From Escherichia coli (GTDB taxonomy: Bacteria > Pseudomonadota > Gammaproteobacteria > Enterobacterales > Enterobacteriaceae), in NCBI RefSeq assembly GCF_024298765.1, contig NZ_CP101210.1: 64,000 nucleotides of DNA; one strand, given 5' to 3'. Positions 44,933 through 63,685 of the stretch are shown here, one piece after another. Below the pieces are notes generated by a model. That model worked only from the letters and a program-made list of their open reading frames with translations. It ran no database searches and had not been told where the DNA came from. The position numbers were made by a program, and so were the translations under genes. Position 1 is the first letter of the stretch. The number at the start of each line of letters is the position of its first letter.

Positions 44933-45008
44933 GCCCGGATAGCTCAGTCGGTAGAGCAGGGGATTGAAAATCCCCGTGTCCTTGGTTCGATTCCGAGTCC
45001 GGGCACCA
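44933..45008 (+). tRNA. pheU: tRNA-Phe (anticodon GAA)
   Basis: 76 nt GCCCGGATAGCTCAGTCGGTAGAGCAGGGGATTGAAAATCCCCGTGTCCTTGGTTCGATTCCGAGTCCGGGCACCA; pheU assigned from flanking yjdC. Confidence 0.95.
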
Positions 45009-59785: not shown

Positions 59786-60133
59786 TTACAGCATGGTCAG
59801 GGAGGTCAGCAGCCGCTTAGGCTGTCGCCAGTCGATACCTTCCAGCAGCATCGCCAGCTGCGCCTGTGTAAGGAACACTTTGCCATCACGGGCTGACGGC
59901 CAGGCGAAGCGCCCACGCTCCAGCCGTTTGGTCAGGAGGCACAGTCCGTCACCGGTGGACCACAGCAGTTTAACCTGACTGCCGCTGCGGCCCCGGAAAA
60001 TGAAAACATGGCCGGACATGGGATCGTCTTTCAGCGCCGTCTGTACTTTCGCAGCCAGGCCGTTGAAGCCATTTCTCATATCGGTGATACCGGCAACCAG
60101 CCAAATTTTGGTCCCGGAAGGTAACGGGATCAT
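59786..60133 (-). CDS. IS66-family TnpB (orfB)
   Basis: ORF track 115 aa MIPLPSGTKIWLVAGITDMRNGFNGLAAKVQ.., characteristic IS66 orfB. Confidence 0.8.
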   Translation of the reverse strand: MIPLPSGTKIWLVAGITDMRNGFNGLAAKVQTALKDDPMSGHVFIFRGRSGSQVKLLWSTGDGLCLLTKRLERGRFAWPSARDGKVFLTQAQLAMLLEGIDWRQPKRLLTSLTML

Positions 60134-60531
60134 CGCTTCAGTTCCTGTATCAGCAGAGTCAGGAGCTTTTCGCTGACATTGCCATTGAAGCGGAGCGTCC
60201 CGTGCCGGAACGTTACCTCACAGCTGATACTGAGGGTTTCCGGGTCCTCTGCGAGCGATTCTGGCTGTTCGGCAGCTGCATCGAGAGTCACAGGAAGTAG
60301 CTGGGGGCTCTCTGAAGAAGGTAATATCAGCTTTCCCTCGCGCCATTGTTGTCGCCATTTGAACAACAGATTGGCGTTAATGCCATTTTCAAGAGCAAGT
60401 TTTGAGATGTATATCCCGGGTTCACAGGAGGCAGCAACGAGCTGCTGTTTAAATTCGGGAGGATAATTAGGGCAGCCTTTTCGCCTGCCGGGAGTCACAT
60501 TTTTCTGCATATCTGACACTTTGGTTCCCAC
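60130..60531 (-). CDS. IS66-family TnpA (orfA)
   Basis: ORF track 133 aa, HTH-type N-terminus; first gene of IS66 operon. Confidence 0.7.
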   Translation of the reverse strand: MGTKVSDMQKNVTPGRRKGCPNYPPEFKQQLVAASCEPGIYISKLALENGINANLLFKWRQQWREGKLILPSSESPQLLPVTLDAAAEQPESLAEDPETLSISCEVTFRHGTLRFNGNVSEKLLTLLIQELKR

Positions 60532-60587
60532 TACTTATTTGAAGTGCGCCCCAATAGTTAGACACCAGATCTGTAACTGAGGAGCGT

Positions 60588-60943
60588 ATGAGCAAATTTT
60601 CATTAGAATTCAAAAGGGAAGTATCAGAAAAATACCTGGAAGGTGAGCTGAGTTTGAAGTCTGTTGGAAAAATGTACAATATTGACCCCAGCACGGTAAG
60701 GAAATGGGCTTATGTTTACCGTAAGCACGGATTAAAAACACTGACTGGGCAAAAAAGACGTTATGACGATAACTTCAGATTGAATGTGGTCAGAGATGTT
60801 ATTGATAATTCTCTTTCTATAAGGGAAGCTGCAGTGAAGTATGGGATCCCTGCTTTTAACACCATATCCAAATGGATTAAAAAATACAGTGAGGTTGATT
60901 TTTCGATGAAGGGACAAAAGGAAGATTTGAGGCCGAAAACTCC
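60588..60943 (+). pseudogene. IS3-family (IS150-like) orfA-type double-HTH transposase gene, interrupted by IS1
   Basis: ORF track 125 aa MSKFSLEFKREVSEKYLEGELSLKSVGKMYNIDPSTVRKW..; last codons derive from the IS1 left end at 60944. Confidence 0.55.
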
Positions 60944-60998
60944 GGTGATGCTGCCAACTTACTGATTTAGTGTATGATGGTGTTTTTGAGGTGCTCCA

Positions 60999-61274
60999 GT
61001 GGCTTCTGTTTCTATCAGCTGTCCCTCCTGTTCAGCTACTGACGGGGTGGTGCGTAACGGCAAAAGCACCGCCGGACATCAGCGCTATCTCTGCTCTCAC
61101 TGCCGTAAAACATGGCAACTGCAGTTCACTTACACCGCTTCTCAACCCGGTACGCACCAGAAAATCATTGATATGGCCATGAATGGCGTTGGATGCCGGG
61201 CAACAGCCCGCATTATGGGCGTTGGCCTCAACACGATTTTACGTCACTTAAAAAACTCAGGCCGCAGTCGGTAA
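60999..61274 (+). CDS. insA: IS1 InsA
   Basis: ORF track 91 aa [40 protein letters not shown].. Confidence 0.9.
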
Positions 61275-61696
61275 CCTCGCGCATACAGCCGGGCAGTGAT
61301 GTGATTGTCTGCGCTGAAATGGACGAACAGTGGGGCTACGTCGGTGCTAAATCACGTCAGCGATGGCTGTTTTACGCGTATGACAGGATACGGAGGACGG
61401 TTGTGGCGCACGTCTTCGGTGAACGCACTCTGGCCACACTGGAGCGTCTTCTGAGCCTGCTGTCGGCCTTTGAGGTCGTGGTATAGATGACGGATGGCTG
61501 GCCGCTGTATGAATCACGCCTGAAGGGAAAGCTGCACGTTATCAGCAAGCGTTACACTCAGCGCATTGAGCGACATAATCTGAATCTGAGACAACATCTG
61601 GCAAGGCTGGGACGGAAGTTACTGTCGTTCTCAAAATCGGTGGAGTTGCATGACAAGGTCATCGGGCATTATCTGAACATAAAACACTATCAGTAA
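61193..61696 (+). pseudogene. insB: IS1 InsB interrupted by in-frame TAG
   Basis: Track splits InsB into 61193..61486 (..LSAFEVVV*) and 61487..61696 ([12 protein letters not shown]..); sequence GTGGTATAGATGACGG where canonical IS1 has a Trp codon as I recall. Confidence 0.7.
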
Positions 61697-61837
61697 GTTG
61701 GAGTCATTACCTCCTCCCGAACTCAAAGCTATCATACAGATAATTACTGGTTAACCCTATATAGGGCATTTTAAAGTGTTGTGATCTTACCCAGCAATAG
61801 TGGACACGCGGCTAAGTGAGTAAACTCTCAGTCAGAG

Positions 61838-62143
61838 GTGACTCACAAGACAAAACAGTTTCAACCAGTAAAAAAACGTAAACAGCATTCGCCTGAATTT
61901 CTCAGTGAAGCCCTGAAACTTGCTGAACGCATCGGTGTTGCTGCCGCAGCCCGTGAACTCAGCCTGTATGAATCACAGCTCTATGCGTGGCGCAGCAAAC
62001 TGCAGCAACAAATGAGTTCGTCAGAGCGTGAAAGTGAACTGGCCGCTGAAAATGCCCGCCTGAAGCGGCAACTGGCGGAGCAGGCAGAGGAACTGGCTAT
62101 CCTCCAAAAGGCCGCGACATACTTTGCGAATCGTCTGAAATGA
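61838..62143 (+). CDS. IS3 OrfA (HTH protein); canonical ATG appears replaced, GTG start only
   Basis: ORF track 101 aa ..[57 protein letters not shown]. Confidence 0.65.
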
Positions 62144-63006
62144 AGTATGTCTTTATTGAAAAACATCAGGCTGAGTTCAGCATCAAAGCAATGTGCCGCG
62201 TGCTCCGGGTGGCCCGCAGCGGCTGGTATACGTGGTGTCAGCGGCGGACAAGGATAAGCACGCGTCAGCAGTTCCGCCAACACTGCGACAGCGTTGTCCT
62301 CGCGGCTTTTACCCGGTCAAAACAGCGTTACGGTGCCCCACGCCTGACGGATGAACTGCGTGCTCAGGGTTACCCCTTTAACGTAAAAACCGTGGCGGCA
62401 AGCCTGCGCCGTCAGGGACTGAGGGCAAAGGCCTCCCGGAAGTTCAGCCCGGTCAGCTACCGCGCACACGGCCTGCCTGTGTCAGAAAATCTGTTGGAGC
62501 AGGATTTTTACGCCAGTGGCCCGAACCAGAAGTGGGCAGGAGACATCACGTACTTACGTACAGATGAAGGCTGGCTGTATCTGGCAGTGGTCATTGACCT
62601 GTGGTCACGTGCCGTTATTGGCTGGTCAATGTCGCCACGCATGACGGCGCAACTGGCCTGCGATGCCCTGCAGATGGCGCTGTGGCGGCGTAAGAGGCCC
62701 CGGAACGTTATCGTTCACACGGACCGTGGAGGCCAGTACTGTTCAGCAGATTATCAGGCGCAACTGAAGCGGCATAATCTGCGTGGAAGTATGAGCGCAA
62801 AAGGTTGCTGCTACGATAATGCCTGCGTGGAAAGCTTCTTTCATTCGCTGAAAGTGGAATGTATCCATGGAGAACACTTTATCAGCCGGGAAATAATGCG
62901 GGCAACGGTGTTTAATTATATCGAATGTGATTACAATCGGTGGCGGCGGCACAGTTGGTGTGGCGGCCTCAGTCCGGAACAATTTGAAAACCAGAACCTC
63001 GCTTAG
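62140..63006 (+). CDS. IS3 OrfB (DDE transposase catalytic part)
   Basis: ORF track 288 aa with rve-domain motifs (..[39 protein letters not shown]..). Confidence 0.85.
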
Positions 63007-63019
63007 GCCTGTGTCCATA

Positions 63020-63685
63020 TTACGTGGGTAGGATCACTAAGCCAGGAATTAAGTCATTTAAAGATATTTCAAATTCACTGGCAATCGTATCTAATCCTTC
63101 CTTATCAATAGATTCAAGCCATAAATTATAATCAATAGGAAGAAGCAACGGATGAGTAAAGTTCAATCTATTTACTAAAGATGATTTAGTATACTCATCA
63201 TTACTTAGCTCTCCAATAAATTCATTATTTATAGAAACAGCATAGTTCTTTATATATGCTGCTCTGTGCAATTGTGACCATGCGATTTTAAACTCTACAT
63301 AAACCTTTTCAGTTTCATCTGCAATGTCTTTCATTTTTATAAAATGAATATCGAAAATATCACCAAGTTCTTCTAAATATGTTTTATATTCTACACCTAT
63401 TGTTTGTTCAGGATCGAAACCGATACCAATAGTAATTACATTATTCAGATCCCCATTATGGACTAGAGATCTAAATCCATCTATGCGCCTGTTCCCCATA
63501 GCTTCTAAATATATAGGATCACACTGCTCACGGTCTAATATTTGTTGAAGATAAAATAATGCAATTAAAATAGTAGTCTTGCCCGCGCTGTTTGGCCCCA
63601 ATAGTAATGTTACAGGTGCAAAATCAATTTCCTGCCGCTCTCTAACAGATCTGAAATTTTCAAGTACAAGTTTAGTTAATTTCAT
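63020..63685 (-). CDS. ABC-type (AAA_15/AAA_21-like) ATPase, N-terminal 221 aa; reading frame terminated inside IS3 right end (likely truncated)
   Basis: MKLTKLVLENFRSVRERQEIDFAPVTLLLGPNSAGKTT Walker A; stop codon lies within the IS3 terminal sequence; AT-rich. Confidence 0.6.
   Translation of the reverse strand: MKLTKLVLENFRSVRERQEIDFAPVTLLLGPNSAGKTTILIALFYLQQILDREQCDPIYLEAMGNRRIDGFRSLVHNGDLNNVITIGIGFDPEQTIGVEYKTYLEELGDIFDIHFIKMKDIADETEKVYVEFKIAWSQLHRAAYIKNYAVSINNEFIGELSNDEYTKSSLVNRLNFTHPLLLPIDYNLWLESIDKEGLDTIASEFEISLNDLIPGLVILPT

Follow-up and report, generated by a model that had tools for sequence, protein, structure and literature searches.

The locus examined here raises a simple question: what is the status of an IS1 copy whose transposase reading frame is interrupted by a TAG codon? 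The copy lies in a 64,000-nucleotide stretch of an Escherichia coli contig (NZ_CP101210.1), the whole of which is hereafter called the window. The first-pass annotation, which was made from the letters alone, proposed that the codon marks either an inactive element or a sequencing error. We favour the first of these in a refined form, to which we assign a probability of roughly 0.9, namely that the stop is an old IS1F nonsense allele carried by an IS1A::IS1F recombinant, and that this recombinant is non-autonomous and should be mobilisable in trans.

The window element is a member of the IS1 family by its length, ends, gene layout and domains (Table 1), and a search for inverted repeats revealed no second IS1 within the window. 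The two 23-nt arms are 83% complementary to each other. Two traits of the family are absent, however, in that the element has neither an intact transposase nor a TSD. The 26-mer quoted in the first-pass annotation, GAGGTCGTGGTATAGATGACGGATGG, occurs once in the window (61472-61497, plus strand), and the accompanying claim that TAG stands in place of a Trp codon and splits the InsB frame was borne out, with the codon at 61484-61486 separating open reading frames of 97 and 69 amino acids. TAG corresponds to IS1 positions 541-543, and the variant base is the A at 542 (window 61485), a single G-to-A transition that constitutes the only lesion in this IS1. The same codon is TGG in IS1A, in IS1X2 and in the closely related active copy of ETEC1720.

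Table 1. Coordinates of the IS1 element, its parts and its immediate flanks in the window
Feature	Window coordinates	Strand	Basis
Complete IS1, IS1A::IS1F hybrid, 768 bp	60944..61711	+	Inverted repeats and flanks read
IRL, 23 nt, IS1A type, G at position 4 (IS1F: A); GGTGATGCTGCCAACTTACTGAT	60944..60966	+	Diagnostic-site table
IRR, 23 nt, IS1F type, G at position 750 (IS1A: A)	61689..61711	+	Diagnostic-site table
insA, intact, 91 aa, zinc-ribbon and HTH domains	60999..61274	+	ORF; Pfam Zn_ribbon_InsA, HTH_Tnp_IS1
A6C -1 ribosomal frameshift site TTAAAAAAC, intact, insA frame 0, joins insA to insB'	61248..61256	+	
insB' frame, upstream part, 97 aa, ends ...SAFEVVV*; InsAB' residues up to 162	61193..61486	+	
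Amber codon TAG for TGG (Trp163 of InsAB'); IS1F/insB7 allele	61484..61486	+	
insB' downstream remnant, 69 aa (MTDGWPLY...), from the ATG directly after TAG	61487..61696	+	
IS1A-type segment, IS1 positions 1-345	60944..61288	+	Diagnostic-site table
Crossover interval, IS1 positions 346-356, without informative sites	61289..61299	+	Diagnostic-site table
IS1F-type segment, IS1 positions 357-768 (right 412 bp)	61300..61711	+	Diagnostic-site table
Left flank: 5' part of an IS3-family element; HTH orfA (60588..) cut by IS1	60545..60943	+	
Right flank: 126-bp spacer and IS3-family element (orfA 61838-62143, orfB 62140-63006)	61712..63036	+	

The consequences for the protein are severe. The stop falls at residue 163 of InsAB', the conceptual -1 frameshift product of 232 amino acids. 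When the stop is read as Trp, Pfam recognises the zinc ribbon Zn_ribbon_InsA (PF03811) at residues 1-36, HTH_Tnp_IS1 (PF12759) at 43-86 and DDE_Tnp_IS1 (PF03400) at 102-232 (E = 1e-73), and the same product matches the NCBIfam model transpos_IS1 (E = 1e-73). The stop costs the DDE domain 70 of its 131 positions and leaves the zinc ribbon and the HTH domain in place. Resemblance to the motifs of other DDE transposases suggests that D166 (the second Asp, in MTDGW) and E191 (the Glu, in IERHN) are catalytic, and both would be in the part that is lost. Because no complete catalytic core is left, the window copy cannot supply its own transposase.

This allele is widespread in E. coli. An 81-mer centred on the TAG (61445-61525) has a 100% full-length match in 2,737 records of a complete-genome E. 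coli collection, a figure that approximates the count of exact matches because only 20 of the 9,116 matching records are without a near-full-length match; the TGG version of the same 81-mer is found in 2,264 records of this collection. Carriers of the TAG version include K-12 MG1655, C600, Nissle 1917 and ATCC 11775. A large collection of public assemblies contains the 69-amino acid frame that follows the stop in 13,030 of its blocks. Plasmids seldom carry the TAG form, which was seen in 28 of at least 5,000 matching plasmid records. In NC_000913.3, the K-12 reference, the IS1F copy beside fecI occupies 4518472-4519239 and comprises insA7 (b4294) and insB7 (b4576), the latter being recorded as a pseudogene, and PGAP labels this copy ‘programmed frameshift; internal stop’. 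E. coli ACN002 carries the same insertion as the window with the same flanks on both sides, differs at one of 768 bases (99.9% identical), has the same TAG and receives the same PGAP label. Since an identical transition is common to thousands of sequences, we consider the stop to have been inherited rather than produced by chance or by a read error. It is the long-known IS1F/insB7 nonsense allele and is quite ordinary.

Beyond E. coli, a degenerate scan with GTNGTNNTNTAGATGACNGAYGGNTGG, designed to detect the stop in this codon whatever the IS1 isoform and run over 100,044 species-representative genomes, returned a single match. The contig concerned, NZ_JPMI01000182.1 (‘Archangium violaceum Cb vi76’ contig00190, 547 bp, from a myxobacterial draft genome), holds the right-hand portion of IS1F, TAG included, which runs into GACCATGTTTAT, the K-12-specific flank on the yjhU side, and is almost certainly E. 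coli K-12 contamination of the myxobacterial assembly. The scan is therefore uninformative for other species, because its sole match is this contaminating junction between K-12 IS1F and yjhU.

Two further characteristics of the element, its hybrid nature and its missing TSD, went unnoticed in the first-pass annotation, as did the identity of the allele with that of IS1F. We compiled a diagnostic-site table of 77 variable sites among eight IS1 elements. Over positions 1-345, the window copy agrees with K-12 IS1A at every site and departs from K-12 IS1F at 31, and from 357 to 768 it equals K-12 IS1F save for one private, synonymous change, an A at 420 (window 61363; CGC to CGA, third position of an Arg codon). 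IS1F differs from IS1A at 73 sites along the whole element, and only in positions 357-768 is the window copy of the IS1F type. The crossover can be placed in the interval 346-356 (window 61289-61299) because identity with IS1A extends to 345 and identity with IS1F begins at 357.

The flanks tell a similar story. No 8-9 bp TSD is present, as seen by comparing the left flank GAAAACTCC with the right flank TCCTCCCGA. In the intact version of the left-hand IS3-family element, which we found in SCZE5, GAAAACTCC continues directly into TGCTGTTTATC, and this continuation is unrelated to the right flank in the window. Conversely, the first 12 bases of the right flank, TCCTCCCGAACT, are the same as those located 3' of the fec-associated IS1F in 503025, in Nissle and in two small fec-carrying replicons, and the match to the two replicons extends at 95.6% identity over 1,325 bp, the IS3-family element included. 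There is no fec sequence in the window and the copy does not lie beside fecI/ykiE; it is some 16 kb into an island whose start is a tRNA-Phe gene (44933-45008, plus strand).

The absence of a TSD, the unrelated flanks and the IS1F-type right neighbour together point to homologous recombination between two IS1 copies, which we infer as the simplest history. One parent would have been an IS1A-type copy residing within the IS3-family element of the tRNA-Phe-linked island, and the other would have been the fec-associated IS1F. A homologous crossover between them at positions 346-356 would have fused the two neighbourhoods, and such an event between these parents would account for the IS1A left end and insA, for the IS1F right half with its TAG and for the right-hand neighbour of IS1F. 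An adjacent deletion mediated by IS1 could be another route to the loss of a TSD. Besides the TAG itself, three sites, all on the IS1F-type side, separate IS1F from the IS1X2-like elements (677, 703 and 764), and 573 also separates the ETEC1720 copy. Because the separating sites are few, a fec-IS1F history rests on them and on the shared right flank, whose identity of 95.6% falls short of complete.

This reliance on few sites leaves room for a different origin of the stop, in which TAG arose independently in an IS1X2-like element, or entered such an element by way of a short gene-conversion tract, without any single crossover involving the fec-associated IS1F. We regard this origin as unlikely, although it has real observations in its favour. 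IS1X2 and the ETEC1720-type copies already possess the same mosaic layout and are only 7-10 sites from the window copy. Furthermore, the locus in the window itself gives clear signs of gene conversion between IS1 copies. Three other genomes (ACN002, CH4804 and XB2) have an IS1 at exactly the same site with the same flanks. The ACN002 copy is of the window type and has TAG. The CH4804 copy (NZ_CM166344.1) is also of the window type, except that it has the IS1A state at 531, 534, 538 and 542, which restores TGG through a tract of between 12 and 49 bp. The XB2 copy is of the IS1A type to position 621 and of the IS1F type from 630, has TGG and is annotated as encoding an intact IS1A-family transposase; its IS1A-type tract runs over 357-621, or about 265 bp or more. 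The patch in CH4804 might be either a true gene conversion or an artefact of short-read polishing. Conversion is also evident at the fec locus, where some copies are IS1F-IS1A-IS1F mosaics that have kept the TAG. Exchange between IS1 copies is ongoing at the insertion site in the window.

Three observations nevertheless argue against an independent or short-tract origin. First, the window copy sides with K-12 IS1F at every separating site from 357 on, both at 573, where the comparison is with the ETEC1720 copy, and at 677, 703 and 764, where it is with both IS1X2-like forms. Second, the element in the window has the right flank of the fec-associated IS1F. Third, a crossover in which flanking sequence was exchanged as well would be in keeping with the missing TSD and with flanks that are unrelated.

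The behaviour expected of the hybrid can be projected from its sequence. After the -1 frameshift, the ribosome would stop at codon 163 and yield a DNA-binding N-terminus without a full catalytic core. We expect the copy to be non-autonomous but mobilisable because nothing is damaged in its ends, its promoter-proximal region, insA or the frameshift site. InsAB' made by an active IS1 elsewhere in the cell would still recognise it, and the copy would also serve as a substrate for recombination and gene conversion between IS1 elements. It is probably movable in trans.

Experiments with K-12 strains provide the closest precedent. The IS1 insertions recovered from the wild type came only from IS1A and IS1E, and a strain without these two elements yielded none (PMC12428005). 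With InsAB' over-expressed in a strain without IS1A and IS1E, IS1F accounted for 44% of 48 sequenced insertions, and a miniIS1 also moves when InsAB' is supplied (PMC12903888). The earlier description of the window element as an inactive IS1 copy therefore stands with regard to its transposase, which is truncated and represents the same pseudogene allele as that of K-12 IS1F, and needs refinement to ‘non-autonomous’ given that K-12 IS1F is mobilised by InsAB' in trans. The 2025 studies attribute the immobility of K-12 IS1F to amino-acid substitutions and also discuss differences in the inverted repeats (PMC12428005, PMC12903888). Neither of these papers mentions the internal amber codon of insB7, a point that may merit a remark to those who work on IS1. 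A literature search on insB7, b4576 and the IS1F stop codon returned nothing relevant.

Natural genomes are in line with these experiments. In the assembly GCA_048157325.1, we found three full IS1F-type copies with TAG that have the private change C313A in common, which converts the A6C motif to A7. One of these is at fec, one is flanked by the 9-bp TSD GTCGCCATA and one by the 8-bp TSD GTTCTGCG. An IS1A-type copy with TGG, itself flanked by a 9-bp TSD, is present in this genome too. Movement of the TAG element in trans would account for the three TAG copies better than three full-length conversions. The change at IS1 position 313, seen as TTAAAAAAATC in the frameshift motif, defines a sub-lineage of TAG-bearing IS1F, and this A7 sub-lineage is where TSD-flanked TAG copies turned up. 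Another record, CP078557.1, has at least eight TAG-bearing IS1X2-like copies, three of them with a 9-bp TSD, to which we give little weight because there are runs of N at the IS1 ends and because the record is absent from the searched collections, including ecoli_genomes. For plasmid-borne TAG copies, no TSD was found in the three non-fec contexts examined, which neither proves nor disproves transposition.

A more provocative proposal concerns why the allele persists. InsA is a repressor or inhibitor of IS1. One might suppose that the TAG-bearing right half of IS1F, which is present in about half of complete E. coli genomes, has been retained as a useful, domesticated ‘IS1 immunity’ copy, such that InsA, together with an InsAB'(1-162) that binds DNA but has no catalytic activity, sits on the ends of IS1 elements and dampens transposition throughout the genome, with recombination spreading the allele to further IS1 copies, the one in the window among them. 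Intact insA occurs in 30 of 31 distinct TAG elements, a count that we do not take as a sign of selective preservation because the sample is small, was drawn by exact-protein look-ups and includes one truncated insA. We found no positive evidence in the present analysis for a role of the TAG allele in restraining IS1, and we consider this proposal improbable.

Signs of decay are also apparent among the carriers. Nissle 1917 and one plasmid-like contig have a second amber codon, a CAG-to-TAG change at IS1 position 322 (Q90* in the insB' frame). The change at 322 is synonymous in the overlapping insA frame. The TAG copies of two genomes have insA reduced to 41 codons, and other TAG copies have 3' deletions. 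Further damage of this kind is to be expected in TAG copies because the gene is a pseudogene.

Such damage bears on the prospect that the amber codon is bypassed and the copy is autonomous after all, be it through a suppressor tRNA, through readthrough or because translation restarts at the ATG next to the stop and a two-piece transposase results. In favour of bypass, an ATG (61487) follows the TAG directly with GAGG located 11 nt upstream, the remaining frame is open, and TSD-flanked TAG copies exist. The stop is also conserved in thousands of IS1 copies. However, K-12 strains having only non-consensus IS1 copies, IS1F included, give no IS1 insertions unless InsAB' is supplied (PMC12428005). 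In addition, the window encodes no suppressor tRNA, its tRNA genes being three for tRNA-Gly and one for tRNA-Phe, extra stops accumulate in other TAG copies, and in GCA_048157325.1, where TAG copies have TSDs, an intact IS1A-type copy is there to supply transposase. Autonomy by way of bypass is very improbable in the light of these observations.

Finally, the suggestion that the TAG is a sequencing or assembly error, with a true base of G and an intact copy, is scarcely credible despite the TGG of the orthologous CH4804 copy, as the same locus in ACN002 has TAG, the exact 81-mer recurs in 2,737 independent E. coli records that include K-12 reference genomes, the 69-amino acid frame after the stop recurs in those 13,030 blocks of public assemblies, and the TGG in CH4804 is accompanied by three further IS1A-type changes within 12 bp, which is why we attribute that TGG to a patch left by conversion or polishing and do not regard it as ancestral.

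The surroundings of the element comprise a patch of IS remnants within the island that begins at tRNA-Phe. On the left, IS66-family accessory genes on the minus strand (59786-60531; tnpB 59786-60133, tnpA 60130-60531) end abruptly at about 60541, beside the truncated IS3-family fragment. On the right, the IS3-family element (61838-63006, plus strand) is annotated as ‘frameshifted’ (pseudo) in ACN002 and CH4804 and as an intact programmed-frameshift transposase in XB2, and the same type of IS3-family element occurs 3' of IS1F in fec-carrying replicons at about 96% identity. Further downstream are genes for an AAA ATPase (63020-63685, minus strand) and a type I restriction S subunit.

Several practical points follow for those who annotate such loci. 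The TAG is not an error in need of ‘correction’, and the copy is best annotated as a hybrid IS1A::IS1F element that lacks a TSD and carries a transposase pseudogene. A hybrid of this sort marks a past recombination between IS1 copies that would have rearranged the tRNA-Phe-linked island. Moreover, such copies are not inert with regard to genome stability, because they should still be movable when an active IS1 is present. The importance for biology at large is small, in that the insB7 allele is already annotated in the K-12 reference and is flagged automatically by PGAP. Likewise, nothing observed here goes beyond established IS1 biology, which includes InsA/InsAB' frameshifting, mobilisation of defective copies in trans, and recombination and conversion between IS elements.

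Comparison with known systems places the window copy between several familiar forms of IS1. It shares with K-12 IS1F (the type IV IS1 of K-12; insA7 b4294 and insB7 b4576, beside fecI) the same TAG at the same codon and the same IRR, along with identity over 357-768 save for the one private synonymous base in the window copy, and its right-hand neighbour is the one that IS1F has at fec in non-K-12 strains. In contrast, its left 345 bp, which include IRL and insA, are of the IS1A type and differ from K-12 IS1F at the 31 sites noted above, and its left neighbour is a truncated IS3-family element in a tRNA-Phe-linked island, whereas that of K-12 IS1F is fecI/ykiE. Relative to IS1A and IS1E, the autonomously mobile ‘consensus’ elements of K-12, the window copy is identical over 1-345 and has the same length, the same insA/insB' organisation and the same A6C site, but from 357 on there are 42 differences from IS1A, among them the TGG-to-TAG change, and IS1A encodes a complete InsAB'.

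The IS1X2-like elements, for instance those of CP131_Sichuan and ETEC1720, which are multi-copy and TSD-flanked, have the same mosaic of an IS1A left side and an IS1F-like right side and are 98.7-99.1% identical to the window copy. They differ from it in having TGG and 8-9 bp TSDs, and at 677, 703 and 764 it is the window copy that is IS1F-like. Lastly, the window copy resembles elements that are mobilised in trans, such as miniIS1 and MITE-like elements, in combining intact ends with a defective transposase gene. The nature of the defect is distinct, however, since the window copy has its full length and a single point lesion, whereas miniIS1 is a deletion derivative.
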